Assembly: GCA_910588015.1 (NCBI GenBank)
Contig: CAJUOK010000003.1
Location: forward strand, 48,193-112,192
DNA: 64,000 bases
Source: an uncultured Christensenellaceae bacterium
GTDB lineage: Bacteria; Bacillota; Clostridia; Christensenellales; UBA3700
Direction of reading: 5' to 3'
Of this stretch, positions 28,142 through 51,292 are shown piece after piece (position 1 is the first letter of the stretch; each line of letters begins with the position of its first letter). The translations under genes were made by a program, and so were the position numbers. The notes beneath the pieces are model-generated. The model was not told the DNA's origin, made no database searches, and saw nothing but the letters and a program-made list of their open reading frames with translations.

Positions 28142-28170
28142 ACATTACCAAAATCACGCCATATAGTCCA
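28142..28170 (-). promoter_or_regulatory. Promoter of recombinase C: CGCTGGACT-N17-TAATGT.
   Basis: Same architecture as five other promoters in the window. Confidence 0.45.
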
Positions 28171-28238
28171 GCGAATTGCCCCAAACAAGCGAAAAGAGCA
28201 GACAGCATTTTGCCATCTGCCCTTCGCTATCAAACGCC

Positions 28239-29852
28239 TCATTCGATTGAATCGGTTATTGTGATGCCGCAACCGAAATCATAGGTTAATTCCTTTCCGT
28301 CAACTGTAACTCGGTTTACAATTTTGCGGAACATATCCCCATCAAACTCCGTCAGTTTTCCTTTCTCTGCAACCATATCCCATAACGCCTGGAATCGGTC
28401 ATTCGTATGTTCAAGGTCAACTACTTGCAGCGAACGCTTTTTCTGCTCTTGCTTTAGTGCTTCTATTTCGGTGATGAGCTGTTCTCTTTCACGCTCCCCG
28501 CCAATAAGGTCTTCGGCTGTTTGAGCAGTTTTAACCGCCTTGACAAGCTGTCTTTCCTTGGAAGCTATCTTCTTTGCAAGTTCATCGTTCGCTTGGTCAG
28601 CAAGCCGTTCGGTCAGCGTTTCTTGAATGCTCTCGGTTATTTTCTTGACCATTCCTTCCTTATCTTCGATGAGCATATTGACCACTCGAACGAAGGAATC
28701 GTACAGCTCCGATTCTTTGACCGCTAACTGTGTGCATACCGAGTTCCCATTCAGTTTGTGGTTTGAGCAAGTCCAAGTTTTTATATACTTATCACCGCAT
28801 TGATACCCGTGCCTACGGAAAATGCAACCGCATTGATAGCAGTACACCTTGCTCGATAAAGGATACTTTGAAGAATAACCGCCCCTACCCGATTTAGTGC
28901 AAGACCGTAAGCTACGGCGGTATTCCATTTCACGCTTTACCCTTTCGAACATCTCATCGCTGATTATTGGCTCGTGGTCATCTTCGACATAGTATTGCTG
29001 CGAGTCGGCAGATGCTGCCCGCTTCTTTTGAACCCAAGGTCTTACGATTGTTTTCTGCAGGAGGGCATCGCCTATGTACTTTTCATTCTGCAACATCCCT
29101 TCTATAGTGCTTTCGTCCCATCTATCCAATCCAGAAGGAGACTTGATGTTCCGCCGCTTCAATTCCTCACTTATCAGTCTGAAACTCAACCCCGAGAGGT
29201 ATAGCTCGAATATGAGTCGTACCACTTCCGCTTGCTCTTTGTTGATAACATACTCGTGGTTGAGGACATCATATCCATAGGTCTTTGCTTTTCTTACAAA
29301 CCCTTGCTCGTTTCTGCGTTGGATACCCCAATTCACGCTATCGCTCAAGCTGTCTGATTCTTCCTGGGCGATTGATGCGTACATTGTCAGCATAAAGTTG
29401 GTTCGCTTATCATCTTGCAGACTGTTGAGCTTTTCCTTTTCAAACACCACGGGGATACGTTTCTCTCGCAACTGCTCTATGATGGTCAAACTGTCCAGCA
29501 CATTTCGAGCGAAACGGCTGACCGACTTGACGAGTATCATATCTATCTTTCCGTCCAGCGCATCTTTTATCATCTCACGAAACTTCGCCCTCTTTTTCAT
29601 ACTTCGTCCCGAGATGCCTTCATCAGCATAAACGCCAACCATCTCCCAGTTGGGGTTGCTTAAAATGAGCCTTGTGTAATACTCCATTTGGGACTTGAAA
29701 CTCGTCTGTTGTTCTTCTCTGCCCGTGGATACCCTGGCATAGGCTGCAACTTTCTTTTTTTGCATTATTATGGGCGAATCATCATCCACAAACAATCGTC
29801 TTGAGTTTGTTGCAGGGATTACCCTTATTTTTCTTTCATCTTTCATCAGCAC
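28239..29852 (-). CDS. Large serine recombinase B (about 510-537 aa), TnpX/TndX-like subfamily, related to D.
   Basis: AAYARVSTGREEQ, KSVSRFARN; start overlaps the end of A. Confidence 0.8.
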   Translation of the reverse strand: MLMKDERKIRVIPATNSRRLFVDDDSPIIMQKKKVAAYARVSTGREEQQTSFKSQMEYYTRLILSNPNWEMVGVYADEGISGRSMKKRAKFREMIKDALDGKIDMILVKSVSRFARNVLDSLTIIEQLREKRIPVVFEKEKLNSLQDDKRTNFMLTMYASIAQEESDSLSDSVNWGIQRRNEQGFVRKAKTYGYDVLNHEYVINKEQAEVVRLIFELYLSGLSFRLISEELKRRNIKSPSGLDRWDESTIEGMLQNEKYIGDALLQKTIVRPWVQKKRAASADSQQYYVEDDHEPIISDEMFERVKREMEYRRSLRSCTKSGRGGYSSKYPLSSKVYCYQCGCIFRRHGYQCGDKYIKTWTCSNHKLNGNSVCTQLAVKESELYDSFVRVVNMLIEDKEGMVKKITESIQETLTERLADQANDELAKKIASKERQLVKAVKTAQTAEDLIGGEREREQLITEIEALKQEQKKRSLQVVDLEHTNDRFQALWDMVAEKGKLTEFDGDMFRKIVNRVTVDGKELTYDFGCGITITDSIE

Positions 29853-31384
29853 ACCTCCGTAACTGCTTTTATGTCAATAGATTGTATTTCATCTTCGCTT
29901 GTTGCCCAGTAGATGATACTCACATATGCTACCTCGCCCGAAGCCAGGTGGAATGCAAGGTGTTCTCTGTCCACTACAACGATTCGGCGTACTATCTGCT
30001 CGAACACTTTTTCATCGAACTCGGTCAGTTTGCCAGTCCGCATTACCGCAGAATTGTAAACCTTCAAATCGTTTTGAGCCTTCACGTTTTGTCCGTTGGT
30101 CTCCAACATAGCCTTCTTCTGTTCTTCTGCCTTGACGATGCGGTTGAGCAGTTTTCTGTACTCTTCCTCAATCTCACCGTGAAGCAATCCCCTAGCTTGG
30201 AGCTGAAGGTATGTCTTTTCTTGGTTGAGCATTCGTGTAATCTCGTTATCGAGTTCTCGAACCTCATCTGTTACTTGCATCTCCATCAAGGTCTTTCGCT
30301 TGCCTTCTATCATATTAAAGATTGCAACGAACACCCGCTCGAGTGTTTCCAACTTGACACTCTCGCTTCTGCAAGCATTCATTCCTCGGCTGCTTTTAAG
30401 GTAGCAACCATACCTTGTTTTCTTATCAGACCGCTTTATTCGTTGAAAGTTATGTCCGCACTTTCCGCACACGATTTTTCCCTTAAACGGGTCGAACTCT
30501 CTGTTCTCGGCTCGAACATACTCCGATGTCTTATGCCTTTCTATCATCCGTTGGCAAGTATCCCATAGCTCTCGGCTAACAATCGGTTCGTGGTCGTTCT
30601 CGACATAGTATTGTTGAGCTTCGCCCATATTCTTTATTTTCTTGCCATCAGCCACCACATACTTTTGGAGCATCGCATCTCCCTTGTACTTTTCATTTTT
30701 GATTATATAAAGGATTGTGCTTGCCAAGAACTGCCGTCCGTGCGCTGTGGTATATCCATCCTTATTTAATCGTCTCGCTATCTCCGCCGTGCCGATTCCC
30801 TTTGCGTAACTCTCATAAATGCGCTTGACGATTTTCGCTTCATCTGGCACGACAACTAATTGCCCATCTTCGTTGAACTTGTACCCGAGAGGTGTATTGG
30901 GGTTGACTATCAACTGCCCTTGCTCGAACCGCTTCTTGAAAGTCCATTTGATTGCTTCGGATTTTTCCTCATATTCCTCTTGCGCTATCTGCGCCATGGT
31001 AACAAGCAGAATATTGTTGCGGTCATTGATGGTATGCAAATTCTCTTGTTCGAAATACACTGGGATGTTCAGCTCTGTCAGCCTTGTAACCGCCCTTATT
31101 GTATCCAAAGTGCATCGTCCAAACCTCTTTATCGATTTGCATAAAATGAAATCAATCTTATGCAACTCCGCATCTTGCATCATCCGCTTGAAGTCCTTTC
31201 TTGCCCCAATGAATCGTCCGCTTATTCCGTTGTCGATGTAGCAACCGCAGTTTACCATTAGCGGGTCTGCATCCATCACTTCATTAAAGTATCGAACTTG
31301 CGATTCCAGGGATACTTCTTGCCCATAGTTTTTGCTGACTCGGCAATAAGCAACCGTTCGTTTTTTTGATTCGTCCATTGGCAT
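29846..31384 (-). CDS. Large serine recombinase A (about 512 aa from ATG 31384; the track GTG start is at 31411).
   Basis: AYCRVSKNYGQE, KSIKRFGRC, CGKCGH zinc ribbon; AGGAGG RBS 5 nt before the ATG at 31382-31384. Confidence 0.8.
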   Translation of the reverse strand: MPMDESKKRTVAYCRVSKNYGQEVSLESQVRYFNEVMDADPLMVNCGCYIDNGISGRFIGARKDFKRMMQDAELHKIDFILCKSIKRFGRCTLDTIRAVTRLTELNIPVYFEQENLHTINDRNNILLVTMAQIAQEEYEEKSEAIKWTFKKRFEQGQLIVNPNTPLGYKFNEDGQLVVVPDEAKIVKRIYESYAKGIGTAEIARRLNKDGYTTAHGRQFLASTILYIIKNEKYKGDAMLQKYVVADGKKIKNMGEAQQYYVENDHEPIVSRELWDTCQRMIERHKTSEYVRAENREFDPFKGKIVCGKCGHNFQRIKRSDKKTRYGCYLKSSRGMNACRSESVKLETLERVFVAIFNMIEGKRKTLMEMQVTDEVRELDNEITRMLNQEKTYLQLQARGLLHGEIEEEYRKLLNRIVKAEEQKKAMLETNGQNVKAQNDLKVYNSAVMRTGKLTEFDEKVFEQIVRRIVVVDREHLAFHLASGEVAYVSIIYWATSEDEIQSIDIKAVTEVC

Positions 31385-31409
31385 ATATCCTCCTTTTTTA
31401 GTATGACAC

Positions 31410-31438
31410 ACATTACCATAGAACCAAAACTATATCCA
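31410..31438 (-). promoter_or_regulatory. Promoter of recombinase A: CGCTGGATAT-N17-TAATGT.
   Basis: Read directly; shares the CTGGA -35 region with the moron-array promoters. Confidence 0.45.
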
Positions 31439-31499
31439 GCGATGTGGCCCCAATATTTAGACTTTTTACGGATTAACCGAGAGATTTCTGCGTGTCCTT

Positions 31500-31538
31500 A
31501 AAGAGTAAAAAAGAGATGTGCGGAAATTACTCCGCACA
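31500..31538 (-). terminator. Rho-independent terminator (minus: GTGCGGA-GTAATT-TCCGCAC followed by ATCTCTTTTTTACTC).
   Basis: Read directly; the stop codon of the upstream small ORF lies in the loop. Confidence 0.45.
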
Positions 31539-31688
31539 CCCACTTTCTATCTCGTATTTCTTTTTTAATTTTGCTTCAATCGAGTCAAATTCCTCGGTGG
31601 TAATTATCCCCTTTCTCATAAGATTAAGGACGATTCCCACCGCACAATTGAACTCGATTGTTTTGACTGCTACCTGTTCACTGTCCAT
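31527..31688 (-). CDS. Small ORF (53 aa) with a strong RBS (GGAAGGAGG), between the PAPS-reductase-like gene and recombinase A.
   Basis: MDSEQVAVKTIEFNCAVGIVLNLMRKGIITTEEFDSIEAKLKKKYEIESGCAE. Below the track cut-off; has its own terminator. Confidence 0.35.
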   Translation of the reverse strand: MDSEQVAVKTIEFNCAVGIVLNLMRKGIITTEEFDSIEAKLKKKYEIESGCAE

Positions 31689-31709
31689 AAACGTCCTCCT
31701 TCCAACCTT

Positions 31710-32543
31710 TCAGTGCGTTGTTTTATCGCTTATTTGCTTCCATCTGAAAGCGGTATTCTTGGGCAGTAAACCACGCTCCTCCATCGAGAAGCGATTGTCG
31801 AAATCGTGAAGGGTATGCCCATCCCCCTTAAACGATACGGGACTATCCGTGTCCCACTTTAAAAGTAATGCCCAATACTCTGGGTAGTTTTTCCTCAACA
31901 ACCGAAGTTGCTCGATTGATTGATTATGGCAGAACCAACATCCGCCCCTGGCAGCACTCGTATAGATGGGACTCAATAAGTCATTCTCTTCGCACCAGGT
32001 TCTGCACATCGCTTCTGTCCAGCCATACTCAACGAGCGGACTGCGCTTCGTTTCCGATAAATTATGATATCTGCGCGGTTCGTCTGCCGCAATGCCGATA
32101 TAGGTAACCGCATCCTTTTGAACCCTTTCCAGAACTCCAACTTTCAACCTTGAATTGCACCAGTTGCCTTTCTGTAAAGGAAACCCGTATATCTTCCCAC
32201 GATTACGGCTTCTCTTGCCGTTGCACACATAATAAAAATAATCTTCATAGCTATGCGGTGCGCTTATGTGTTCAACTGATATGCCGTACTTGTCAAGGAT
32301 TATGGCATCCGCCTTTTTCTTGAATTCCATCATCGGCGGAAGGTCTGCCGGGATGTCTTTGGTTGCCATAATCTCGACGTGTACGATTCTGTCAAGCGGT
32401 AGGCTATTGCGGTGAATAACTTCAAGCATTGCCAAGCTGTCTTTGCCGTAGCTTATGCTTGCTATGTATTCCATACTCGCTCTCCGTCCACTTACTGATT
32501 TTTCAAAAGGTTGATGGTGCTTTCGATTTGGTTCGTCAGCCAC
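31710..32543 (-). CDS. PAPS reductase-like / DndC-like PP-loop ATP-pyrophosphatase family protein.
   Basis: SYGKDS PP-loop and CWFC-type cysteine pairs; overall PAPS_reduct family pattern. Confidence 0.7.
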   Translation of the reverse strand: MADEPNRKHHQPFEKSVSGRRASMEYIASISYGKDSLAMLEVIHRNSLPLDRIVHVEIMATKDIPADLPPMMEFKKKADAIILDKYGISVEHISAPHSYEDYFYYVCNGKRSRNRGKIYGFPLQKGNWCNSRLKVGVLERVQKDAVTYIGIAADEPRRYHNLSETKRSPLVEYGWTEAMCRTWCEENDLLSPIYTSAARGGCWFCHNQSIEQLRLLRKNYPEYWALLLKWDTDSPVSFKGDGHTLHDFDNRFSMEERGLLPKNTAFRWKQISDKTTH

Positions 32544-32872
32544 CCATCAAGGTTGCCGTAGGTCGAGGAGATGTATTCTTTAACATCATCCCCGAGTTGT
32601 GAAAGTGCTATATCCTTCGCCTTTGACAGAGCCGTTTTCTGCGCTTCAGCATTGAAAGAGCCGCTTGCTTTCAAGCTCTCCACATACGTTTGAAATACGC
32701 TTCTAACTGCATTAAGTACGATAGTCGTTGCCGTAGTCAGCAAGGCTGCTGCCTTTTCATTCTTGACCTTTGTGCCGATGTACTGTATGAGCTTCGTTCC
32801 TGCCCAAGTAATAAGCGGTAGCAACACTGTGGTCACTACCACCGAAATCACGTTTATTAAGATGTCGTTCAT
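32492..32872 (-). CDS. Holin (two N-terminal TM helices).
   Basis: MNDILINVISVVVTTVLLPLITWAGTKLIQYIG...ALLTTATTIVLNAV; directly follows the tail-associated genes. Confidence 0.5.
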   Translation of the reverse strand: MNDILINVISVVVTTVLLPLITWAGTKLIQYIGTKVKNEKAAALLTTATTIVLNAVRSVFQTYVESLKASGSFNAEAQKTALSKAKDIALSQLGDDVKEYISSTYGNLDGWLTNQIESTINLLKNQ

Positions 32873-32882
32873 TTTGTACCTC

Positions 32883-33182
32883 CTAGTTGTCCGAAATCTG
32901 CTCGATTAAAAATTCATCAAGCTCTTTGTTTACCGAAGTGTAATCAGCGAGAGCGTGTTTGAGTTCGCCGTTCGTCTTCCCATCACGGATTGCGATGGCG
33001 TTGGCTTCCGTAAGCTCTCCTATCGCCTTGATACTTTTTAAGATGAGAATGTTCTCCTGCCTGTGCGCTTCGTTCCGCTTGTTTTCTTTATCCTCGTGGC
33101 GTTTTATGTACCTTTGCACCAAGAACACCACTACGCCGCTTATAACGCTTGCACATACGCTTATAACGATTGATACAACCAT
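32883..33182 (-). CDS. Small membrane protein (N-terminal TM plus coiled coil), possible lysis accessory.
   Basis: MVVSIVISVCASVISGVVVFLVQRY... Confidence 0.35.
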   Translation of the reverse strand: MVVSIVISVCASVISGVVVFLVQRYIKRHEDKENKRNEAHRQENILILKSIKAIGELTEANAIAIRDGKTNGELKHALADYTSVNKELDEFLIEQISDN

Positions 33183-33184
33183 AA

Positions 33185-33649: not shown

Positions 33650-33974
33650 TGAGCCAGGCTTCGTACCATTCGTCCAGCTCTGCCTTTTGCGCTTCAGTCA
33701 AGCGGTCATACCACAATGCGCCACGGTTGATAACCGAGAAGCACTCATCTTCTCGCCTATGCCGTAGCGCATTCAGTTCCGACCTTGCTTTGAATTCGTC
33801 TGCTTTTGCTTTGTACTCATCGGTCTTGGTGTAGTCCACAAAGAACAATGCCCCGTTATATCCGTTGACAATTTGATACTTTGTGCTTTCCATCGACTTG
33901 CACTTGTCGTTAAACTTCTCGAAACCATCCTCGATGATTTCTTGGTTCTCGTTTTGTAAATAGTAAATTTTCAT
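33600..33974 (-). CDS. Hypothetical phage protein (124 aa).
   Basis: ORF in track. Confidence 0.35.
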   Translation of the reverse strand: MKIYYLQNENQEIIEDGFEKFNDKCKSMESTKYQIVNGYNGALFFVDYTKTDEYKAKADEFKARSELNALRHRREDECFSVINRGALWYDRLTEAQKAELDEWYEAWLNVTETKVVPNTPIWLN

Positions 33975-33976
33975 AA

Positions 33977-36900
33977 TTAACTCCCGTAAATAAGGCAGAA
34001 AAACCCATTAGATAGTGTGCTGGTGTCGCAGATGACATAAACCGTTGTTCCTGAAATATATACACCATAACGAGACACTCCATTTATGAGATTTTTGTCA
34101 CCGCTCAAACTACCACTCGAGCCAGGCGTACTTTTCTCTCGCGGAATAACTATTGCACCCGAGACGCTCGTCAAACCATGAGTTGAACTTGTTATCGAAA
34201 CACGAGAGTCATTAGCAACACTACTGTAATAAGTCCAGAAGTAGAACTTATGCCCAACAAGGTCATAGGTTTTTCCATTGTAAGCATTTCTTAAGCGCCA
34301 TGTCCCTCCATAGTAACTGTCATACACAAGCTCGGCAAGCGTGTGGCTGGCAAAGCGCAAATATGCGCCCCACTCATACTGCGCTGCATACGGAGATTTC
34401 ATATAGCTTCGGCTGATGCCCAAGATGAACGGAGCTACACTTCCTACCGTTGAGCCTTGGTCTACATAATACGACTGAATGGAATATGTCGTTATGCAGC
34501 CTTCTGCTATCGTAGTATTGCCGTTACTTGAATAACTCGTCCTCTTTTGATAGCTCGGTTGGATTTTTATTCCGCAATAAACGCTCGAAGTGTAAGATGA
34601 GATGGTTATTGCGCTATGCGATAAAGACCATCCTCTTGAACCAAGCGATTCCTGATACCTACTGTAGCAGTTGTTCGCACCAAGGTATGTTGTATAGTTC
34701 CCGCTCGTAATTTGGATTGATGAACCACCGCTTGCGTTGGTAAGACTGCTTGAGTTAATCGTGAACCCACCTATCGTTCCGCTCGTAGCAGTTATCGTTC
34801 CCGAAATCTCTGCGTTCGTTGCATAGAGTTTGCCCGCCGCAGTTACATAGAAAGTTCCTGCACCCAAGCCAATACCATCCGTGCCAAGATAGACTCCTGT
34901 ATTTGCATCGCTGTATGTTGTTTTGGTTTTGTAGATTTTATTGGTCGAAATAGTGAATCCACCTATCGTACCACTCGGCGCAGACAGCTTTCCGCTGAAA
35001 ACCGCCGTTGATGCTTTATCGATTCGCAGCCCCGGCAGATTTATGTAGTAATTGCTGTCGTTATAGTTGGCGGAAATATAGTAGCTACTGTTGCCACCAA
35101 AATACAGATATCCGTCAATCGTGAGGTTTCCTATCGAACCGCTTGTAGCATCTATCGCACCCACCACCGACAGACCAGAGCTTGTTATCGACATCACAGT
35201 GCTTGCGTTCGAATACACATAAAAGCCTGTTGACTTCAACACCCAACCGAAAGACGAGGAACTGCTCCCGTAGGTTTCATCAACCTTCTTCGCCACTTCC
35301 GCCGAAATCTGCGTAGTCGTTTGCTTTAGCGTTGAAAGTTCCGATGTTACAGACACGAGCTTTCCCTCAGCAGTAGTAACTCTTGTCGTAACCGCCGAAA
35401 CACTGCTCGTCAGTCCATCAACGTTACTCTCGAGCGTTGCTTGCTTCGTTGTTAGCGTTTTAACGCTAGCCGTAAGATTACCCACGTTGCCAGCTAAAAC
35501 GCCTACATCCGATGCCAAACCATCCACTGCAGTCTGCGCATTATCTGCCGTGGTTTGAGCTTTATCGGCAGAGGTTTGAGCTTGATTTGCGGAGGTCTGT
35601 GCTTTGTTAGCAGAAGTTTGAGCTTGGTTTGCAGTAGATTGCGCTTGATTCGCTGCCGTTTCTACCTTTTCCACTGTTTCGGTTGTGGCGTAGGCTTTCA
35701 ACACCACTTCGCCAGTATCCAAGTTCCAGAACGATGAATTATCTACAGATGATATCGTCCCAGCCTTGATAATGTTCGCAACCAAAGTCCCCGAGGAAAT
35801 AAAGTCCGCTACTATCCTCCCGTCTGCCGTGATAGCAGTTTCGTAGGGGCCATTGTAACCCTTGCTTGAAAAGCCGAGTCCGTTGACGTTCCAACGCCAA
35901 ACATTCACCGCATCCTCTATCTTCGGTGCATCCAAGATAAGCAATTCATAAGGCTGCCCCGTTTCAGTGTACGTATGCAAAACTACATATCCGCCCGTCT
36001 GTCCTGTCAAAAGGTCAGTTGCTTTGCGGATAGCAGAATTAATCAGCATCGGCACTCTGTTAGCAGAAGCGTTTGCTTTGTCAATGACTTTTTCAAGTTC
36101 CTCGGTACTCTGCTTTATCGTGTTCATAAGGTTTGCCTTTGCCGAACCCAACGAAACAGAAGTGTACTTCTCCGCTAACGTGTTATATACTGTTTTGATG
36201 ACCTTTGCTTTAGCGGTAACGCCCAATACCGAGTGCTTAATGGTTACAGTGTCGCATAGCGATAGCCGTTCCATAACCGCAGCATACTCGGGCTGTTGCC
36301 ACAAAGGTTCAAATGAAATTGTTATGTTTGGAACGGGTGCATCGAGCGAATGGCTTTCAATGTACGAAAGCGTTTTATTTCGAAGCATCTCTTCCGTGAT
36401 TAAAGTCCCATCTTCGAACGAGTCCGTCAAATCAAGGATTAAAGTTTTCTTGTGTAGTAGCTGACTGTTCTCAATGGGGACAGTTGTCTCGGGAAGCGTT
36501 ATCAGCGTTTCCTCATCTTCTTCGTTTTTCATAAAAGCGAACGGCAGCACTTCGGTATAAACCTCACTGTCCTCGCTCTCATGGCTAAACTTCGTCAGGT
36601 TCTTACCGTACTCGATAACGACATCGGTGTGTTCCCCGCGACCTTGATGATGCTTGATTTCAAAGTTGTCCCACTCGTATTCCCCGCCCCACAACGAAAG
36701 CACTGAACCTTCTTCGCCACCCAAACAAGCTCTTATGCTCTTGGGTTTCTTAACGGAAAAGTCCTTTGCTGCAGAATAGTCAGTTTGGAATGTAAAGTTG
36801 TGTGGTGTTGTTGCATTAGCGAGGACATATTCCATCGCCATTTGCGGTGTGATCGCTTTCCGCTCAAATGGCATAATTCCCACACCCGAAAGGTCGTAGG

Positions 36901-37902: not shown

Positions 37903-40640
37903 TATGCGAATACTGCTCCTTTTCTTTTCATAAAATTGCCCGCCGTTTCCATTATTTCGTTAGTTAGGTCGGCTATATCCTCGCTCGAATAGTTATTGAA
38001 TTGGTCGATGTAGAGTTGAATGGTTATTCCGCTGTTCCCTGCAATCGCACCGCTTTGCACCCCGCTTGTTACGCTTGAAACATTGAAGTCCGTAGGAACT
38101 CCTGACATATACGCATTTAGGTCATTGAACACCGAATTCAAATCTTCGGTCATCGCATTTGCGCTGTCGATTACATCCCCGGCGGTCTCGTCAATTCCAA
38201 CCGCAAGTCCCTCCATAAGCATATCGCCTATGAACGCCATCTTTTTAGAAGGCGAGTGAATTCCGAAGAAGTTCTTGATTCCATTCCACAGGTTTTTCGC
38301 CCAACCGCTGACCTTATCCCAAATCCATCCCGCAAGGCTCTGAATTCCTTCCCATAATCCACGCACAAGGTTTGCACCGATTTCTACGAATGAACTGATG
38401 CCTTGCGCAAATCCGTTGACGAGAGCTTTGATGATTTGAGGAACTGCCTTCACAAGCTCCACGATTATTTGAGGAAGATTGGCAATCAGCGACAAGAACA
38501 GTTGAATGCCCGCCTGGATAAGTTGCGGAATCGAGCCGAGGATGGCTTCGATAATTCCGTTTATAATTTGCGGAATTGCTTCTACTATCGCCGTTATTAT
38601 TTCGGGCAAAGCCGCCACAAGCGAAATTAAAAGCTGAATACCCGCTTGTATAATCAAAGGAATTGCACCGATAACCGCATCGATTATCCCCGATATAATC
38701 TGGGGTATAGCACCCACAATTGCAAGGATGATGTCTGGCAACGCTCCTATGAGCGCAGTCAGCAATTGTATCCCCGCATCAATAATGAGCGGTATTGCGG
38801 TCAGCACGGCTTCGATTATCCCCGAAATAATCTCGGGAATTACCGCAACAATGGCTTCTATGATTTCAGGCAGTGCCGCCACGAGCGAAGTCAAAAGCTG
38901 TATGCCCGCATCAATTATCTCCGGGATTGCCCCAAGAATAAAATTGACTATTGCTAGAATAATTTCGGGCAGTGCTTTGATGATTATAGGGATTGCATCA
39001 AGGATACCTTGCGCCACTCCCTTTATAAGCTGAAGCACCGCCTTTAAAATCGTAGGCAGATTGTTGATGAGCGTCTTGGCAACTTGCATTATCACTTGCA
39101 CAACGGCTGGTATCAGCTTCGGCATTGCCTTTGCAAGACCCTCGACAAGCGTTTCTATAACTTTCAGCGCCGCATCGATAAACAGCGGAAGTTGGTCGAT
39201 TATTCCGTCCACCAACGCAAGAACCAACTGCAACGCCCCGTCCGCAATCTGCGGTAAGGCGGAAATCAGTCCGTTGAGAATGGTAAAGATTATCTGCGAA
39301 ACTGCGCTCATTATCATCGGCAAATTATCAACGATAGCCTTGCCAAATGAGCCAACAACGGACACTATCAAGTCCAAAATCTGCGGAACATACTGCATCA
39401 CAGTGTTCAGTGCTTTCGGTAAAATATCACTTATGACATCAGCCATTTTACTGATGTCCCCACCACATTCATTTATCCCTTTCGCAAAGTCCCCTAGAAG
39501 GTCAACCCCTGCGCCAGAGAGCTGTGTTAATATGGGAAGCAATACTGTACCGAGAGCGTTCTTCGCTGCTGTTGCGCCCGTGGTTAGTTTTTGAAGTTGG
39601 TCATCGTATGCGCCATAAGCCGAAAGCGTATCGTCCGAAAGGACATAACCCGCCTTTCGGGCTTCTTCGCCAAGCTCTGCCATTTTACCCGCACCCGCCG
39701 TTATTAACGGATTGAGTTCCTGTGCCGACTTGCCGAGTATCTGCATTGCAATAGCATCGCGCTCGGTTTCGTTTTCTATCTTGCCCAGTGCTTCGATTAC
39801 TTCCCAATAAACGGTATCGCTATCTCGAAGATTACCTTCCGCATCCAATGCCGAAACTCCCAGTTTCTCGTAGGCTTCAACAGAGAGCTTCGTTCCATCC
39901 TGTACGGCTTTCATGCTCTTTATCTGCTTCGCCATTGACTTGGTCAGCGTTTCGGTTGAGACATCGATAAGCTCCGCCGCATACATATACTCTTGCAATT
40001 TATCCGTAGCAATGCCTGTTACAGTTGATTCGGTAAGTACAGTATCAGCATAGGCAGCACCTTCCCTTGTCATATCGACCAGTGCTTTGCCCGCCGCTAT
40101 TGCGGCAGCGGAAACGGCAGCAAAGGCGGCTGTAATTGCACCAGCCACACCTTTACATACGCTGCCGAGAGCTTCCATCTTGGGCGAAGATTCGTCCGCT
40201 TGATTACCAGCGTCCTCAATTTCATCGCCCATTTTATCAGCAGATTTTTTCGCATCGTCCATTCCCGAACTTGTGTTATCAAGAGCCGACTTGTTTTGCT
40301 TCAGCTCTTTTTCCATTCCGTTCAGTTCTGCTTGCGCATTATTAAGTTGTACTTGCCAAGCCTGGGTTCGCTTGTCCGTTTCGCCAAATGACGATGCAGC
40401 ATTTTGGAGTGCCGAACGCAAAACTTCAATCTTCTGCTTCTGGGCTTCGATTGACTTTTCCAGCACTTCGTTCCGTGCCGTTAGCGCCTGGGCGGATTGG
40501 TCGTTCTTGTCGAACTGACTATCCACTAGCTTCATTTCCGAACCTAGCACCTTGAAGGCTTGGTTTATCTCGGAAAGTTGAGACTTGAACTCTTTCTCGC
40601 CTTCAAGCCCTATCTTTAAGCCGAAATTCTCCAATGCCAT
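37902..40640 (-). CDS. Tail tape measure protein (912 aa).
   Basis: Long helical protein with about 9 tandem repeats (AIPEIIDAGIQLLTSLVAALPEII...). Follows the G/GT chaperone pair. Confidence 0.75.
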   Translation of the reverse strand: MALENFGLKIGLEGEKEFKSQLSEINQAFKVLGSEMKLVDSQFDKNDQSAQALTARNEVLEKSIEAQKQKIEVLRSALQNAASSFGETDKRTQAWQVQLNNAQAELNGMEKELKQNKSALDNTSSGMDDAKKSADKMGDEIEDAGNQADESSPKMEALGSVCKGVAGAITAAFAAVSAAAIAAGKALVDMTREGAAYADTVLTESTVTGIATDKLQEYMYAAELIDVSTETLTKSMAKQIKSMKAVQDGTKLSVEAYEKLGVSALDAEGNLRDSDTVYWEVIEALGKIENETERDAIAMQILGKSAQELNPLITAGAGKMAELGEEARKAGYVLSDDTLSAYGAYDDQLQKLTTGATAAKNALGTVLLPILTQLSGAGVDLLGDFAKGINECGGDISKMADVISDILPKALNTVMQYVPQILDLIVSVVGSFGKAIVDNLPMIMSAVSQIIFTILNGLISALPQIADGALQLVLALVDGIIDQLPLFIDAALKVIETLVEGLAKAMPKLIPAVVQVIMQVAKTLINNLPTILKAVLQLIKGVAQGILDAIPIIIKALPEIILAIVNFILGAIPEIIDAGIQLLTSLVAALPEIIEAIVAVIPEIISGIIEAVLTAIPLIIDAGIQLLTALIGALPDIILAIVGAIPQIISGIIDAVIGAIPLIIQAGIQLLISLVAALPEIITAIVEAIPQIINGIIEAILGSIPQLIQAGIQLFLSLIANLPQIIVELVKAVPQIIKALVNGFAQGISSFVEIGANLVRGLWEGIQSLAGWIWDKVSGWAKNLWNGIKNFFGIHSPSKKMAFIGDMLMEGLAVGIDETAGDVIDSANAMTEDLNSVFNDLNAYMSGVPTDFNVSSVTSGVQSGAIAGNSGITIQLYIDQFNNYSSEDIADLTNEIMETAGNFMKRKGAVFA

Positions 40641-44712: not shown

Positions 44713-44728
44713 TTTAATTCCTCCAAAA

Positions 44729-45475: not shown

Positions 45476-46733
45476 TGTCTGTCTCCTTTTCGTTATTTTT
45501 ATCTGCATAAGCACCTGCTTTTTCAAGCGGGAGCATATTGCCGTTTACTAGGTATAAGTCCCCGCCTTGCTCGGGCGATAACTTATCCAAGTCCTCAAGT
45601 TCCCGTATATCGTTTGCCGACATCCCGCCGTTCTGCCTTGCGATTGCATATCCGTTCATTCGGCTTTGGTAATCTCCACGCAACAAGCCTTCAAGGTTGA
45701 ATTTGAAGAAGTATCGCTTCTTCTCATCTTCCGAAAGCAGTGAGCGCGAAAGCGACTGTTCCCAACGAACTACCCACGGGTCAAGTGTGTATTTTACAAA
45801 CTCAAGGCTCTGTTGCTCGATATTAGAAAAGCTCGACTTTTCAAGGTCTCCAACCATATGCGGTGGCACTCTGAAAATTCGAGCTATTTCGTTGATTTGG
45901 AATTTACGGGTTTCAAGGAACTGCGCTTGCTCCGGCGAAATGGAAATCGGCGTGTACTTCATTCCTTCTTCAAGGACTGCTACTTTGCCCGAGTTACCGC
46001 TTCCGCCAAATTGCGACTGCCACGCTTCCCGAACCCTAGTCGGGTCTTTAATCGTGCCGGGATGTTCCAACACACCCGAAGGTGCTGCGCCGTTCGCAAA
46101 AAACTTACTGCCAAACTCCTCTGTCGCAATTGCCAAACCGATAGCGTTTTTTGCCATTGCTATAGGACTATACCCCACCAAACCATCAAAACCGAGTCCA
46201 GGAATATGCAAGACATCCTTTGGTTCAAGCACAACGGACGAGCCGTTCATCGTGTTCGGTTCGCAGTCGCTGCGTGTGTAGGTATAATAGAGTTTTCCGT
46301 TCTCGTCCCTATCCACCGACATCTTGTTCGGCATCAATGGATACAACGCAATTATCTCGCCCTTTCCGTTGCGGATTATCTGCGCATACGCATTTCCCCA
46401 AAGTAACAAGTGAGTCATCAGCGTTTCCCTGAAAACGAAAGAACTCATCTCGGGGTTCGGTTCATCGTGTAGCAAGTGGTACAAATTACTGTCGATTGCT
46501 TTCTCTTTCGAGCCGTCTTCCTTGTATCGGTAAAAGTGCAAAGGTAACCCCGCTACCGCTTCCGAAAGAATTCTTACGCAAGCATATACCGCAGTCATTT
46601 GCATTGCGCTGCGTTCGGTTACCGATTTGCCCGAGGACGAATTGCCCATAAAAAAGGTAAAGCTACTACCGACTGTCCTATCTTCGACCTTGGGTGCATC
46701 CCTCGACTTTTTTCTGTTCTTGAAAAGTCCCAT
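45417..46733 (-). CDS. Portal protein, HK97 family.
   Basis: Size 438 aa; position after TerL. Confidence 0.75.
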   Translation of the reverse strand: MGLFKNRKKSRDAPKVEDRTVGSSFTFFMGNSSSGKSVTERSAMQMTAVYACVRILSEAVAGLPLHFYRYKEDGSKEKAIDSNLYHLLHDEPNPEMSSFVFRETLMTHLLLWGNAYAQIIRNGKGEIIALYPLMPNKMSVDRDENGKLYYTYTRSDCEPNTMNGSSVVLEPKDVLHIPGLGFDGLVGYSPIAMAKNAIGLAIATEEFGSKFFANGAAPSGVLEHPGTIKDPTRVREAWQSQFGGSGNSGKVAVLEEGMKYTPISISPEQAQFLETRKFQINEIARIFRVPPHMVGDLEKSSFSNIEQQSLEFVKYTLDPWVVRWEQSLSRSLLSEDEKKRYFFKFNLEGLLRGDYQSRMNGYAIARQNGGMSANDIRELEDLDKLSPEQGGDLYLVNGNMLPLEKAGAYADKNNEKETDNEEVLELEKPRRRNTRESS

Positions 46734-46742
46734 AATCTCTCC

Positions 46743-48341
46743 TTAAATAAAAATTAGCCCACGGCTGTCATAGATTGATTCGGTTGATGCCCCGTTGCGT
46801 ATTGCTCTGTCCAGAGCCATAACGGTTGCAACCGCTCCGTCTATTTTTTCCGTTGACTTTGATTTGTCCATTTTTATGTTCCCGGCAGGGTCTGTGCGAA
46901 CGCATACATTATCCATCATCCAATGCAGCACTGGCTGACCATTGTGGCGGATTTTCTTGCCAAGCACCAAGTTCATCAGTTCTTTGGTTGCAGGACTCAT
47001 ATCCTTAAACCCCTGCCCAAACGGGATGACAGTGAAACCGAGGTTCTCAAGGTTCTGTGTCATTTGAACTGCACCCCATCGGTCAAAGGCGATTTCCTTT
47101 ATGTTGTATTTCTTGCCAAGCTCATCAATGAAATTCTCGATGAACCCGTAATGGATAACGTTGCCTTCCGTGGTCTGTATATATCCTTGCTGTTCCCAGA
47201 TATCATACGGCACATGGTCTTTTGCAACTCTCCGCTCCAAGTTCTCCTCGGGTATCCAGAAGAACGACAAGATGTAATAATTTTCATCCGTATCCGTTGG
47301 CGGAAACACCAACACAAACGCCGTAATATCGGTTGAGGACGAAAGGTCAAGTCCGCCGTAACACACTCTGCCTTCCAAGCTCTCGGGCGAGAAATCCGCC
47401 TTACACGCCTCCCACTTTTCCATTGGCATCCAACGCACCGCTTGCTTTACCCATTGATTCAATCGCAACTGTCGGAAGGTGTTCTCCTCGGCTGGGTTCT
47501 GCCGCGCCGATTCAAACGCCACTCGAACCTTGTCGATGCCTACTGTTATGCCAAGACTGGGGTTCGCTTTTTTCCATACTTTTGGATCCGTCCAGTCATC
47601 ATTTTCGTCTGCCCCATATATTACGGGATAGAAGGTTGAGTCTAGTTTTCTGCCTAGAATAATGTCCTTGGCTTTTTGGTGTGTTTCGTAGCAGATGGAT
47701 TTTGTATCCGTTCCCGCAGTCGTGATTAAAAAGTACAGCGGTTGCATTCGAGCATCGCCAGAGCCTTTGGTCATAACATCAAACAGCTTTCTGTTCGGTT
47801 GGGTGTGCAACTCATCGAACACAACGCCGTGAATATTGAAACCATGCTTGCTGTACGCTTCCGCCGAAAGAACTTGATAGAAGCTGTTCTTCGGCAGATA
47901 GATTATACGCTTGCTTGCCGTGAGTATCTTGCACCGCTTGTTCAAAGCAGGACACATCCGAATCATATCGGCAGCGACTTCAAAGACAATCGATGCTTGC
48001 CCTCTGTCCGCTGCACAACCATAAACTTCGGCTCGTTCCTCACCATCTCCGCAAGTAAGCAAAAGGGCAACAGCCGCCGCCAACTCGCTCTTGCCCATCT
48101 TCTTCGGTATTTCTATGTACGCAGTATTAAACTGCCGATACCCGTTCGGCTTGATGATTCCAAAAAGGTCTCGAATTATCTGTTCTTGCCAATCGATAAG
48201 TTCAAACGGCTCTCCCGCCCATGTGCCTTTCGTATGACATAGGCACTGTATGAAATTGACCGCATAGTCCGCCGCCGACTTGTCATATACGGAGTCCTTG
48301 GCTTTGAACTTGGTCGGCACATATTTCTTTAGCTTTCTCAA
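46743..48341 (-). CDS. terL: Terminase large subunit.
   Basis: 532 aa; Walker A-like KKMGKS; Terminase_1 pattern; nuclease C-terminal half. Confidence 0.85.
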   Translation of the reverse strand: MRKLKKYVPTKFKAKDSVYDKSAADYAVNFIQCLCHTKGTWAGEPFELIDWQEQIIRDLFGIIKPNGYRQFNTAYIEIPKKMGKSELAAAVALLLTCGDGEERAEVYGCAADRGQASIVFEVAADMIRMCPALNKRCKILTASKRIIYLPKNSFYQVLSAEAYSKHGFNIHGVVFDELHTQPNRKLFDVMTKGSGDARMQPLYFLITTAGTDTKSICYETHQKAKDIILGRKLDSTFYPVIYGADENDDWTDPKVWKKANPSLGITVGIDKVRVAFESARQNPAEENTFRQLRLNQWVKQAVRWMPMEKWEACKADFSPESLEGRVCYGGLDLSSSTDITAFVLVFPPTDTDENYYILSFFWIPEENLERRVAKDHVPYDIWEQQGYIQTTEGNVIHYGFIENFIDELGKKYNIKEIAFDRWGAVQMTQNLENLGFTVIPFGQGFKDMSPATKELMNLVLGKKIRHNGQPVLHWMMDNVCVRTDPAGNIKMDKSKSTEKIDGAVATVMALDRAIRNGASTESIYDSRGLIFI

Positions 48342-48433
48342 GTAGCCTTGCCTCCCTTTCTATTTTTGCAAAAGAAAAAGCCGACCTTGTCAGTCGACCT
48401 TTCGTTTGATGTTTTCTTTTTTTCGTTATTCCG

Positions 48434-48757
48434 TCAAATAGCTATCTTGCCCTTTTTAACGTGTCTATCCACTTGCCGTAGGTATTCAATCATATCGTGA
48501 ATTCGGTAGTCCTTGTTTTTGTCGGCTATCAATCGTTCCTGAACCAAGAACCATCTCATCGTTTCCGAAATGTCCGCGCTTCTCGCCAGTATCGCTTTTT
48601 TCAGCTTTTCAGTTACCACCTCGCCACCGCAGTTGGGTTGGACAGCATCGATGTACTCTAGTAGCGTCTCACGAACTTCCGCCGCCTTTATTCCTTTCAC
48701 TTCTTGTGCTTTGTAGTGCATACCCTCACCTCTTGTTTTTATTTTCGTAGTCAGCAA
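48434..48757 (-). CDS. Hypothetical small phage protein.
   Basis: ORF in track. Confidence 0.35.
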   Translation of the reverse strand: MLTTKIKTRGEGMHYKAQEVKGIKAAEVRETLLEYIDAVQPNCGGEVVTEKLKKAILARSADISETMRWFLVQERLIADKNKDYRIHDMIEYLRQVDRHVKKGKIAI

Positions 48758-48923
48758 TCGCTGCTATGATTTCTGCTTTCTCCGCTTCCGAAACACCTGC
48801 GATATCCAACGCTTCACGAGTTCCGCAAAGCGGGCAGATTTCTTGGTGATTATCGAACCTTGAAATCGCAGGTCGCGCCGTGTAGGTCTTTCCGCATTTC
48901 GGGCAAGTCCTGGTCGTTTCCAT
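48726..48923 (-). CDS. Zinc-ribbon small protein (the track ORF extends to 48995).
   Basis: METTRTCPKCGKTY...CPLCG. Confidence 0.4.
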   Translation of the reverse strand: METTRTCPKCGKTYTARPAISRFDNHQEICPLCGTREALDIAGVSEAEKAEIIAAIADYENKNKR

Positions 48924-48933
48924 TCCACACCTC

Positions 48934-49161
48934 CTAGTTGTAATCGTAAGCGATGATGTCAAAGGCATCACGCTGTTCGGTGTTGCTCGGCTCAATGTTC
49001 CAAGCCTTATCGTAGCTCGTTATCACCTTGCCCTTACACTTAATGGTCAGCTTCGCAATTTTTCCGCCCTCAATGCCGTACTTCGATTTTCTGCTGTACT
49101 GCATCCCTTCGTAGTGGTAGCCGTTGTTGTTTACGATTACAAAACCTTTGAACGCTTTCAT
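48934..49161 (-). CDS. Small protein with a GIEGG(K/R)I(A/S)KLTIK motif, paralog of the next gene's C-terminus.
   Basis: YGIEGGKIAKLTIKCKGKVITSYDKAWNIEP versus FGIEGGRISKLTIKNERTGKEVVNYDRGWDIQP. Confidence 0.45.
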   Translation of the reverse strand: MKAFKGFVIVNNNGYHYEGMQYSRKSKYGIEGGKIAKLTIKCKGKVITSYDKAWNIEPSNTEQRDAFDIIAYDYN

Positions 49162-49173
49162 CTCGCCACCTCG

Positions 49174-49617
49174 TTAATTGAAGTTGCGAAGCACCCAGTC
49201 GAGTGCTGCTTGCGCTGACTTGGTCTTGGGTTGAATGTCCCAACCCCTGTCGTAGTTTACGACTTCCTTGCCCGTGCGCTCGTTCTTGATGGTTAGCTTG
49301 GAAATCCTACCGCCCTCAATACCGAACTCCGAACCTTCGTCAAACCGCTTAATCCAAAAGCGGAAGGTGCAGCCCGCAATTTGAAGTCTGCCATCGTTCC
49401 AAGGGCTGTCATCGTTGGGTTTGCGTTCCTCTTGGTAGCAAGGAACATAAAAGGTTTCTTCTTTGCCGTTGATAACCAAGTGGACTGACCTGGGGTTCTG
49501 AAGTCCCCCAGCCGTTCCCGTTACGGAGCCAAGCGAAAGAACCTCGGCGTTTCCGTGCTTCTGCGCTATCTTTTGCAGGCTTGCTATATACTCGTTTAAG
49601 GTTACAAATTTTTTCAT
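49174..49617 (-). CDS. Hypothetical protein (147 aa) with a C-terminal GIEGG-motif domain.
   Basis: ORF in track; AGGAG RBS; own promoter and terminator. Confidence 0.45.
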   Translation of the reverse strand: MKKFVTLNEYIASLQKIAQKHGNAEVLSLGSVTGTAGGLQNPRSVHLVINGKEETFYVPCYQEERKPNDDSPWNDGRLQIAGCTFRFWIKRFDEGSEFGIEGGRISKLTIKNERTGKEVVNYDRGWDIQPKTKSAQAALDWVLRNFN

Positions 49618-49654
49618 TTTGAACTCCTTTTGAGGGGGGCTTCCCTCTCCGTTT

Positions 49655-49790
49655 TGTAGGTGTATATTAACTCTAAAACGAATATATATCCAGTGATATG
49701 CGCCACTATTATGCAGATATTTAATTATTTTTTCGGGTTTTTTGCACTACTCTTTCAACGAAAAAACCACCCTTTCGGGTGGCTCTATTT
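49655..49790 (-). promoter_or_regulatory. Repeat unit R1: terminator hairpin (AGCCACCCGAAAGGGTGG followed by TTTTTT, about 49761-49786) plus promoter CACTGGATAT-N17-TAATAT (49655-49683).
   Basis: Read directly; about 140-bp unit repeated four times between 49.6 and 51.3 kb. Confidence 0.5.
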
Positions 49791-49797
49791 TGCCTTT

Positions 49798-50124
49798 TTA
49801 TTTCTTAATTACGGCGGTGTATCGTGCGTAATCATAACCCTCGCTTTCAACCAGAACGCTGATTTTGCTGCCCCTTGCGGTTACTTTTATGCAATGCCAT
49901 ATTCCGTTTTCGTCCACCTTCATTATGCCGCTGTTCACTTTGATAAAATCCTTATCTTCGAGGAAGTTATCGCAGAACGCTGCGAACTCGGTGGGTGTTA
50001 AAGTAATGGTCTTTTCGACAACAATCTCGCGCTTGGGTTTTTCCCCACTGTAGCAATTAATGCATTCTTTAGCTGCTTCCCAGTCTTCTACGCTATCTGC
50101 CTTTCTTATCATGTATGCTTTCAT
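49798..50124 (-). CDS. Hypothetical protein (108 aa).
   Basis: ORF in track; GAAGGAG RBS; own promoter and terminator. Confidence 0.45.
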   Translation of the reverse strand: MKAYMIRKADSVEDWEAAKECINCYSGEKPKREIVVEKTITLTPTEFAAFCDNFLEDKDFIKVNSGIMKVDENGIWHCIKVTARGSKISVLVESEGYDYARYTAVIKK

Positions 50125-50156
50125 TTCACTTTCTCCTTCGCTTTTTGTATGTGTAT

Positions 50157-50262
50157 ATTAACTCTAATACACATATATATCCAGTGAATTTTGGCATTAT
50201 TTTGAAGAATAATTTATTTATTTTTTAACGAAAAAACCACCCTTTTGAGGTGGTCATTTCCG
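50157..50262 (-). promoter_or_regulatory. Repeat unit R2: terminator (50230-50260) plus promoter TTCACTGGATAT-N17-TAATAT (50157-50185).
   Basis: Read directly. Confidence 0.5.
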
Positions 50263-50286
50263 TTGGTATTTGGTTCGTTCCTGGCA

Positions 50287-50679
50287 TTAGCTTCCGAAAA
50301 GAATTCTGCCCGTTTCGAGAACTTCGTAGTCGTGCAGCACTTCAATGATTCGAGTGATGTCATCGTATTCGTCCTCGGCATACTCGCTCAATTCGTCCCA
50401 CCATCTGCTCCTCAAAACCTCGCGCCTTTCAACCTTTCCAACCGAGCCGAGGTTGCTGTTGTAGGCTTCGGGGTTGTAGGTCGCTGCCTCTGCGTTGAAG
50501 GCATCTTTCAACTTCAACCAAAGTGCGTGTGCCTTGCGGTAGGTCTCGGGGTTCGTTACCCCAGTCTTCTTGGCTACCGAGCCAACTCCAAAGGTGGGGA
50601 ACTTTACCACCGTATCAATGTTTGCGATTACTTCCTCTGCTGTTTTCCATTCGTATTTGTAGGTCTTGGGTGCTTTCAT
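50287..50679 (-). CDS. Hypothetical protein (130 aa from the ATG at 50679).
   Basis: GAAGGAG RBS; the track ORF extends upstream through the repeat. Confidence 0.45.
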   Translation of the reverse strand: MKAPKTYKYEWKTAEEVIANIDTVVKFPTFGVGSVAKKTGVTNPETYRKAHALWLKLKDAFNAEAATYNPEAYNSNLGSVGKVERREVLRSRWWDELSEYAEDEYDDITRIIEVLHDYEVLETGRILFGS

Positions 50680-50711
50680 TTTTGTTTGTCTCCTTCGCTT
50701 TTTGTAGGTGT

Positions 50712-50840
50712 ATATTACCTCTAACTCACTTATATATCCAGTGAATTTTGGCACTATTTCGAAGAATTATTAGTTTATTTTTAGCCTTTTTTTGCACCCT
50801 TTTCTGCAACGAAAAACCACCCTTTCGGGTGGCTAAAGTC
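50712..50840 (-). promoter_or_regulatory. Repeat unit R3: terminator (50810-50836) plus promoter (50712-50740).
   Basis: Read directly. Confidence 0.5.
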
Positions 50841-50864
50841 AAGGATATTACGGGGTCAATGCGA

Positions 50865-51245
50865 TTAGAGCTTGTCGGAACAGTAGGTCTTTCCGCTACG
50901 TAGATCGATGAGAATTTCGACATACCTGTCTCGTTCTGAACCTTCGCTGCCAAGAACGCATTCCTCATAGAAGTCGATGGCTTCCTGCCTGTCGTCAAAG
51001 GTGCGGTCTTTGCCGTAGTTGTGGACGATGACATAGTTCAGCTTTTTGCAGATGTCTTCGCCATATGCAACATTCAAACTGCTGCCGTTGTCCCACTTGA
51101 CCATTATTGAGCCGATGTCATCAACCCCTCTCACTGTCCCTTTGGTGCCGATGGGCGGTGCTTGCTCATCTTCCATTTTTTCAAGCACCACCCTTGCCCC
51201 TACAGGAAACTGCTGACGAAGGCTTTCAAGTTCTCTGGTGTTCAT
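50865..51245 (-). CDS. DUF4314-like small protein.
   Basis: GTKGTVRGVDDIGSIMVKWDNGSSL pattern; call from recall. Confidence 0.45.
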   Translation of the reverse strand: MNTRELESLRQQFPVGARVVLEKMEDEQAPPIGTKGTVRGVDDIGSIMVKWDNGSSLNVAYGEDICKKLNYVIVHNYGKDRTFDDRQEAIDFYEECVLGSEGSERDRYVEILIDLRSGKTYCSDKL

Positions 51246-51263
51246 ATTGCTTCCTCCATTTTT

Positions 51264-51292
51264 AAGTATGCGTATATTAACTCTAAACGGAA
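51264..51292 (-). promoter_or_regulatory. Repeat unit R4: promoter only (CGCTGGATAT-N17-TAATAT), upstream of the DUF4314 gene.
   Basis: Read directly. Confidence 0.5.

Follow-up and report, generated by a model that had tools for sequence, protein, structure and literature searches.

This report concerns a short promoter-like cassette that occurs six times in a prophage of an uncultured Christensenellaceae bacterium (contig CAJUOK010000003.1). The whole stretch of DNA analysed, here called the window, is 64 kilobases (kb) long, and the prophage spans it from ~26.6 kb to its end. On the minus strand, the genes follow in the order helicase, primase and RusA; a DUF1492 regulator; a PhdYeFM/ParE pair; HNH, terS (55761-56303), a ParB-methyltransferase and a C5-methyltransferase; an array bearing four of the cassettes; and then terL (46743-48341), portal, head, tail and lysis genes and three serine recombinases. 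The closest annotated relatives of the prophage are 'Ca. Heliusvirales' phages from human faeces (the NatCom series; PMC11283538) and Streptococcus prophages.

A search of the whole window with the pattern CTGGAYWW-N16-TAATRT returns exactly six matches, every one on the minus strand, at 28142-28171, 31410-31439, 49664-49693, 50155-50184, 50712-50741 and 51274-51303. The chance expectation is a mean of 0.00, with no match in 100 dinucleotide-preserving shuffles of the window. Read as hexamers, all six sites consist of TGGATA (TGGACT at the 28142 site), 17 nucleotides (nt) and TAATAT or TAATGT. Downstream of each come an A-rich leader, a Shine-Dalgarno sequence of the GGAGG type and an ATG, and the distance from site to Shine-Dalgarno sequence and start codon is 22-40 nt. 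Two of the sites stand 5´ of recombinases A and C, and the other four 5´ of self-contained small genes. An earlier, sequence-only reading had described six copies of one architecture, with these hexamers and spacing, a strong ribosome-binding site and a single promoter-like design common to the two recombinases and the four small genes; the analysis bears this out, as it does the observation that the -35 box departs from consensus yet is conserved along with its flanks. That reading left the strand unstated, and three of its intervals stand whereas the other three (49655-49683, 50157-50185 and 51264-51292) are displaced by 2-10 nt. The six sites are not six independent events, because the four array copies each fall within a repeat unit of 90-130 nt of intergenic DNA, in which a GCCACCCGAAAGGGTGG terminator also lies, and the copies at recombinases A and C are accompanied by paralogous 5´ coding sequence (repeat families D1, D2, D6, D10 and D11).

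The array comprises four units on the minus strand, headed by cassettes P1 to P4. P1 (51259..51315; family-profile E = 3.3e-9) has its -35 TGGATA at 51302-51297, its -10 TAATAT at 51279-51274, a predicted +1 A at ~51267, a GGAGG Shine-Dalgarno sequence and the ATG at 51245. It precedes array gene 1 (50865..51245), which encodes a DUF4314 protein of 126 amino acids (aa; Pfam E = 2.3e-30; phrog_2431 and phrog_3782, both of unknown function) and is followed by an intrinsic terminator at 50815..50834, in which GCCACCCGAAAGGGTGG leads into a U-run (-15.6 kcal/mol, z = -3.2; repeat families D10 and D11). P2 (50697..50753; E = 5.5e-12; -35 TGGATA 50740-50735, -10 TAATAT 50717-50712, predicted +1 ~50705, ATG 50679) precedes array gene 2 (50287..50679; 130 aa), for which neither Pfam nor PHROGs gives a family match and which is closed by an intrinsic terminator at 50235..50255 (D10). 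P3 (50140..50196; E = 1e-11; -35 TGGATA 50183-50178, -10 TAATAT 50160-50155, predicted +1 ~50148, ATG 50124) serves array gene 3 (49798..50124), a 108-aa DUF6329 gene (Pfam E = 6.1e-10; phrog_21303) that ends at a second GCCACCCGAAAGGGTGG hairpin terminator (49757..49785; D10 and D11). P4 (49649..49705; E = 6e-13; -35 TGGATA 49692-49687, -10 TAATAT 49669-49664, predicted +1 ~49657) has a 40-nt leader before the ATG at 49617 and heads a four-gene unit (48434..49617) of two DUF7678 genes (147 aa, 49174-49617; 75 aa, 48934-49161), a zinc-ribbon gene (65 aa, 48726-48923) and a 95-aa gene (48434-48721).

The DUF7678 domain (phrog_4709) thus occurs in two adjoining genes, 48934-49161 and 49174-49617; a related locus, L126, which is ~80% identical to window positions 48300-50545 and was the sole locus returned by a protein search for DUF7678 relatives, has a single DUF7678 gene and an unrelated 118-aa gene. 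Between the P4 unit and terL, which starts at 48341, lies only a weak terminator-like hairpin with a U-run (48381-48393), kept in L126 at 2487-2512. Therefore, transcription from P4 may read into the structural genes, or else late transcription must pass the three strong terminators of the array.

At the prophage end, three large serine recombinase genes stand in tandem on the minus strand (26591-31384); A and B overlap, and C has a promoter of its own. Recombinases A (29846-31384) and B (28239-29852) overlap by 7 nt and form an operon (28239..31384); both carry the Pfam domains Resolvase, Recombinase and Zn_ribbon_recom and show sub-threshold similarity to CcrB and XisF. The operon is preceded by a cassette at 31395..31451 (E = 5.2e-7) with the -35 TGGATA at 31438-31433, the -10 TAATGT at 31415-31410, a TGG before it (extended -10) and a predicted +1 at 31404-31402. 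Recombinase A starts at ATG 31384; the listed GTG start at 31411 falls within the -10 box. The cassette of recombinase C (28127..28183), with TGGACT at 28170-28165, TAATGT at 28147-28142, again with TGG before it, and ATG at 28114, is the most diverged copy and the weakest of the six matches to the family profile (E = 0.0013). Recombinase C itself occupies 26591..28114 and is assigned by Pfam. It is plausible that a single class of promoter drives the recombinases together with the array.

Cassette anatomy and -35 alleles

Conservation was read in 59 non-redundant cassettes at the positions left free by the search. A G two bases before TAATAT is present in 59/59 cassettes, and an A seven bases past TAATAT, inside a TAC, in 54. 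Directly 5´ of CTGG lies an AAAT-n-A block, whose AAAT is found in 45-54 of the 59. The 3´ end of the cassette is formed by an A-run and then GGAGG, and the 17-nt spacer holds almost no information. With the conserved A taken as the predicted +1, TAATAT occupies -12 to -7, the G lies at -14 (half an extended -10), TGGATA occupies -35 to -30 and AAAT-n-A lies at -42 to -37, with the AAAT at -42 to -39. This geometry is, as judged from sequence, that of a standard promoter of the housekeeping sigma factor (sigma-A) with an upstream A-tract. T-12, A-11, T-7 and the 17-base-pair (bp) spacing are found in all six sites of the window, and the -35 hexamer of the window, TGGATA, agrees with TTGACA at 4/6 positions, while TTGATA of homologues agrees at 5/6.

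The cassette was compared by eye with the consensus sequences of promoters for sigma-H, -E, -F, -G, -K, -D, -54 and the extracytoplasmic function (ECF) sigma factors, none of which agrees with it in both boxes at the right spacing. The closest alternative, sigma-H, has GGAWWW in common and was ruled out on a -10 of TAAT instead of GAAT and on the spacing. A DnaA box does not fit either.

The identity of the -35 box was examined in cassettes gathered by the -10 and leader only (GKTAATATRYRNNTACMAAAA), with the -35 left free, which yielded 80 distinct family sequences. Their hexamers are TTGATA (28), TGGATA (26), TTGCTA (14), TGGCTA (6), TTGCAA (2), TTGAAT (1) and TTGCAT (1). Near-identical cassettes differ solely by T or G at -34, as in L146 and L028, and the homologous promoter of NatCom_38182 and of Streptococcus phage Javan630 has TTGCTA. 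Within the window prophage itself, the promoter of the toxin-antitoxin pair (58082..58122, minus strand) is a canonical relative of the cassette, with a perfect TTGACA-17-TATAAT at 58122-58094 and the leader TAATATGACTACCAAA shared with the family in the same register. Because TTG hexamers fill the same register in a sample anchored on the -10 and the leader, TGGATA is read from the alignment as the G allele at -34 of an ordinary TTGATA -35 box and not as a distinct recognition element.

The conserved sequence runs on into the transcribed leader, and one leader has a small hairpin, which might point to a structured RNA element or a small RNA gene instead of a promoter. That hairpin, however, is not significant (z = -0.44). 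Rfam returns no family for the whole window at the gathering threshold, nor for 48300-58300 at E up to 1, and the conserved blocks are split by an unconstrained spacer and have no complementary partners. An RNA element is the least probable of the explanations weighed here.

Distribution and the proposed regulator

The same element occurs in NatCom_9287 and NatCom_991, likewise in the interval between terS and terL. The complete phage NatCom_991 has three copies of the cassette in the terS-terL interval and a fourth in front of a recombinase ('DNA invertase') gene, and no copy was found in its early, replication and lysogeny half. An exact-pattern scan of a viral contig collection gives at least 120 stretches, many with 2-4 copies, whereas the same pattern gives only 98 stretches in 185,579 species represented by one genome each. 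About 100 of the 113 sites in the species genomes are clear family members, all in Clostridia or Streptococcus. A 59-nt consensus matches 71 deposited phages, of which 70 are streptococcal, including phi1207.3, phi-m46.1 and phi-SsUD.1. The element is a feature of a phage lineage and not a host regulon, since some 100 copies are spread over 185,579 genomes, nearly all prophage-like, in hosts from both Clostridia and Bacilli. The genes downstream of the cassettes fall into at least 21 unrelated protein clusters, among them a 225-aa protein, an amidoligase, DUF7678, a 120-aa protein, DUF4314, serine recombinases and many orphans. A literature search for the cassette that included the Heliusvirales paper and the promoters of phi1207.3 found no description, and the cassette is apparently undescribed in the literature searched. 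The finding is real, but the feature is of a known kind.

The sequence-only reading had proposed that a dedicated factor, for example an ArpU-like regulator encoded at 58245-58727, recognises the sites and co-regulates the recombinases with the array. By Pfam, the protein encoded at 58245..58727 (minus strand) belongs to DUF1492 (E = 3.6e-9), the LtrB late-activator family, which has been shown to drive the promoter upstream of terS (PMC3753634). Its NCBIfam matches are limited to sub-threshold sigma70-ECF and RinA models and include no ArpU model, so the assignment to ArpU does not hold. A sequence search of the Protein Data Bank with this protein gave insignificant matches only.

A phage factor of this kind, DUF1492 or other, would replace or assist region 4 of sigma at CTGGATAT and co-activate the recombinases and the array, in the manner of T4 MotA/AsiA or of lambda CII at PI. 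Three points speak for such a factor: the -35 box and its flanks are conserved although the box departs from consensus, the DUF1492 relatives in NatCom_991 and Javan630 score above the threshold for Pfam Sigma70_r4, and Ltr proteins activate their promoters without other phage factors (PMC3753634). The alleles speak against it: TTG stands at the same position in about half of the unbiased sample, and a TTGACA version followed by the same leader exists in the prophage of the window itself. Between the window protein and the DUF1492 proteins of three NatCom phages, identity is only 26-35%, and the C-terminal helix-turn-helix differs as well, although two of these three phages carry the identical motif. 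The complete genome of phi1207.3 has four TGG-type cassettes, but a five-member DUF1492 profile finds no homologue among its open reading frames (ORFs; best E = 0.32), and the ORF at the position equivalent to the regulator is unrelated to DUF1492.

The location of the sites is a further point. Each of the six is found either on the downstream side of terS or ahead of a recombinase gene; none heads the late operon upstream of terS, where the known Ltr target region lies. That region has a different design in the window and in the three NatCom phages, with a good -10, no -35 and direct repeats specific to each phage, and CTGGATAT was not found there (window 57190-57319 and the same region of the three phages). 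DUF1492 is thus an unlikely reader of the cassette, because the regulators diverge while the motif stays identical and because phi1207.3 has cassettes without DUF1492. Recognition by a dedicated factor of any kind is considered quite improbable.

Mosaic junctions and gene exchange

The surroundings of the cassettes were compared in pairs of sites from different loci whose 57-nt cores are at least 85% identical. Both flanks are shared by 1057 such pairs and neither flank by 219; 169 pairs share the downstream flank only and 32 the upstream flank only. The cassette is more conserved than the genes around it and often marks where homology between phages starts or stops. The interval between terS and terL holds different genes in NatCom_9287, NatCom_991, NatCom_38182, Javan630 and L126, and L126 has whole extra genes directly behind two cassettes, with the junctions at a repeated AAGGAGA ribosome-binding sequence. 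A terminator-like hairpin lies no more than 160 nt upstream of 21/94 non-redundant cassettes, against 29/422 control positions. In the array of the window, a GC hairpin and a U-run close 3/4 units, and 3/4 copies have a composite of terminator and promoter. Single genes between terS and terL, each enclosed by its own promoter and terminator, correspond to phage morons, which are autonomous promoter-gene-terminator units inside late operons (PMC3594210).

These junctions also bear on the proposal that the repeats are target sites, where serine recombinases insert, excise or invert cassettes in an integron-like manner. In its favour are the three to four large serine recombinase genes in the vicinity, the single-gene cassettes between the repeats and the mosaic junctions at the cassettes. 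However, all copies have the same orientation and a fixed distance to the Shine-Dalgarno sequence and ATG, and their conserved blocks coincide exactly with the -35 and -10 positions, 17 bp apart. The element lacks an imperfect dyad around a central dinucleotide and is least conserved in its middle. The insertion-deletion junctions of L126 fall at the Shine-Dalgarno sequence and leader and not within the motif, and in phi1207.3 the cassettes are far from the recombinases, with none in front of them. A role as recombination target is very improbable.

From the observed geometry, conservation, distribution, alleles and junctions of the sites, we consider it probable that the six sites are lineage-specific sigma-A promoter and leader cassettes with a strength variant at -34, which secondarily act as a patch of homology for gene exchange. 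The ~57-nt portable cassette would consist of the AAAT-n-A block (-42 to -37), a -35 region of the form C-T-(T/G)-G-(A/C)-T-A-(T/A), the 17-bp spacer, G-14 and TAATAT; transcription would start at the conserved A and run through an A-rich, unstructured leader to a strong Shine-Dalgarno sequence. The G at -34 most likely makes the promoter weaker or adjusts its strength, an effect that G-14 and the A-tract upstream would offset in part. Ca. Heliusvirales-type temperate phages, including the streptococcal phi1207.3/phi-m46.1 group, would use the cassette outside their early and late operons to serve accessory genes that stand alone in the terS-terL interval ('morons') and large serine recombinases at the prophage end, with a canonical form serving the toxin-antitoxin pair. 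The array units would each be closed by a terminator of their own. Expression from the cassette would be independent of the lytic cascade and would probably also take place in the lysogen. Because the same cassette precedes many unrelated genes, it would offer phages shared homology at which accessory genes are exchanged and shuffled.

Several points weigh against this reading. The six sites of the window reach only 8/12 against the sigma-A consensus and are missed by a generic promoter scan. We infer promoter activity, start site and sigma dependence from sequence, and the estimates of conservation are partly shaped by the search patterns with which the sites were collected. Only 21/94 non-redundant cassettes have the composite of terminator and promoter. 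Conservation is also tighter than the sigma-A minimum, at C-36, at T-31 (not C), in TAATAT (not TATAAT) and in the -42 to -37 block, and these positions hardly vary between the phages of streptococci and those of Clostridia. The cause could be an additional DNA-binding protein. In that case, a sigma-A promoter would be combined with an operator, AAATgACTkGATAT over the -35, that is bound by a conserved phage or host protein, a repressor or an activator, and defines a true regulon, for instance one switched on or off according to lysogeny. Conservation past the hexamers (-42 to -36, -29 to -27 and the first transcribed bases), its persistence across host classes and the limitation of the cassette to one functional class of genes agree with an operator. 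Against it, the conserved block shows neither dyad nor direct-repeat symmetry, the spacer is under no constraint, T and G vary freely at -34 in the middle of the putative operator, and no regulator gene common to all carriers was found. The A-rich -40 region has the expected look of an UP-like element, and homogenisation by recombination could account for the high identity. The operator is considered unlikely.

Among known systems, the cassette shares with sigma-A promoters of Bacillota that have a partial extended -10 the -35 to -30 register, the 17-bp spacer, T-12, A-11 and T-7, G-14, a predicted purine start 7 nt on and the A-rich upstream region, and its alleles run from TGGATA through TTGATA to TTGACA. 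It differs from them in that G/T-34, T-31, TAATAT and C-36 are fixed across host classes and in that the leader and Shine-Dalgarno sequence belong to the conserved unit. Like morons, the units hold single accessory genes or genes of unknown function, with promoter and terminator, between terS and terL in late-operon orientation; unlike morons, all of them use one homologous cassette, which is common to recombinase genes, and their expression in the lysogen is a prediction. The late promoters that depend on LtrB/DUF1492, RinA and ArpU (PMC3753634) belong to the same kind of phage and have a weak -35, and the window has a DUF1492 gene; Ltr targets, however, lie upstream of terS and are regulator-specific, whereas the cassette stays the same while the regulators diverge and also occurs in a phage that lacks DUF1492. 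The CII promoters of lambda (PI, PRE and PaQ) likewise include an integrase promoter with a poor -35, of a type common to other genes of one regulatory class, but the cassette has no TTGC-N6-TTGC-type repeat across its -35, TTG alleles are common and no CII-like factor was identified.

The PeSL of T4-type phages are composite terminator/early-promoter motifs that mediate gene shuffling (PMC2839356, PMC4122927). As with PeSL, short repeated regulatory cassettes border the variable genes of a plastic region, the same cassette precedes unrelated genes and homology breaks there. Unlike PeSL, the cassette belongs to temperate siphovirus-type phages of Gram-positive hosts, is unrelated in sequence, has a terminator in about a fifth of the copies and is known here through sequence comparison. 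A bolder version, in which the cassette is a mobile expression module (UP-like tract, tunable sigma-A promoter with a T/G 'dial' at -34, leader, Shine-Dalgarno sequence and often a terminator) that defines a cascade-independent expression class and serves as a swap linker, the counterpart of T4 PeSL in temperate phages of Gram-positive hosts, is possible but doubtful. If it were true, the module would cover recombinase, toxin-antitoxin and accessory genes of Heliusvirales-type phages, and phages of gut Clostridia would swap genes with those of streptococci, the resistance-carrying phi1207.3/phi-m46.1 group among them.

Ca. Heliusvirales-type prophages are among the most prevalent human gut phages, and genes for resistance to macrolides and tetracycline are found in their relatives from streptococci. 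The cassette would provide a simple sequence tag for accessory genes with candidate anti-defence or lysogenic-conversion functions, a ready portable promoter for gut Clostridia that are difficult to work with and a concrete hypothesis of how cargo passes among these phages. It reveals no new mechanism of transcription.

Late promoter region and other features of the prophage

Upstream of HNH/terS, two 17-nt direct repeats, GGCACTyrATGGTACTT, lie at 57319-57303 and 57287-57271 on the minus strand and are followed by the promoter TTGTGA-17-TGtTAAAAT (57272-57244, minus strand). About 15 nt past the predicted late start, a 13-bp GC hairpin with a U-run occupies 57220-57189 (-27.8 kcal/mol, z = -6.4). 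A strong hairpin terminator ~15-25 nt past the predicted late start is common to the window and the three NatCom phages, which share this late layout (loci L002, 19495-19600; L003, 16810-16940; L001, 17110-17230). The arrangement is similar to PR'/tR' of lambda, a hint that late transcription under LtrB control involves read-through of a terminator. In phi1207.3 (25008-25083; locus L296, 4575-4650), GCACTAAATTGGTACTAAATT repeats similar to the late-promoter repeats of the window are followed by a TGTGATATACT extended -10, immediately 5´ of the first cassette. A regulator shared by the window and phi1207.3 was considered on the basis of these similar repeats and was dropped on account of the unrelated ORF at the equivalent position.

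Further toward the early genes, the toxin-antitoxin pair on the minus strand comprises a PhdYeFM-type antitoxin gene (57768-58064) and a ParE/RelE-type toxin gene (57448-57771). Two near-perfect sigma-A promoters stand upstream of it, at 58244-58216 and 58122-58094 (minus strand). A palindrome, TTGACAAGGTTGTCAA, overlaps the -35 and is likely an operator for autoregulation. Past the terminator 3´ of the toxin gene and before the late promoter region, ATTCCCAAGATTGTA occurs twice as direct copies (57350-57392, minus strand); the pair could be a packaging or regulator site. On the opposite strand of the late-operon leader region, an ORF of 75 aa with a strong Shine-Dalgarno sequence (56878-57105, plus strand) has no match among the PHROGs families.

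Positions 1-26.5 kb of the window form a separate mobile element that adjoins the prophage and contains a fourth large serine recombinase gene (21562-23469, plus strand). Housekeeping genes were sought in these 26.5 kb as a source of host housekeeping promoters, and none was found. In the tail region of the prophage, periodic DNA repeats occur at 35560-35649 and 38422-38996, within genes for proteins of 1070 aa and 912 aa; they consist of 21-nt units and of units at 33-132 nt spacing.

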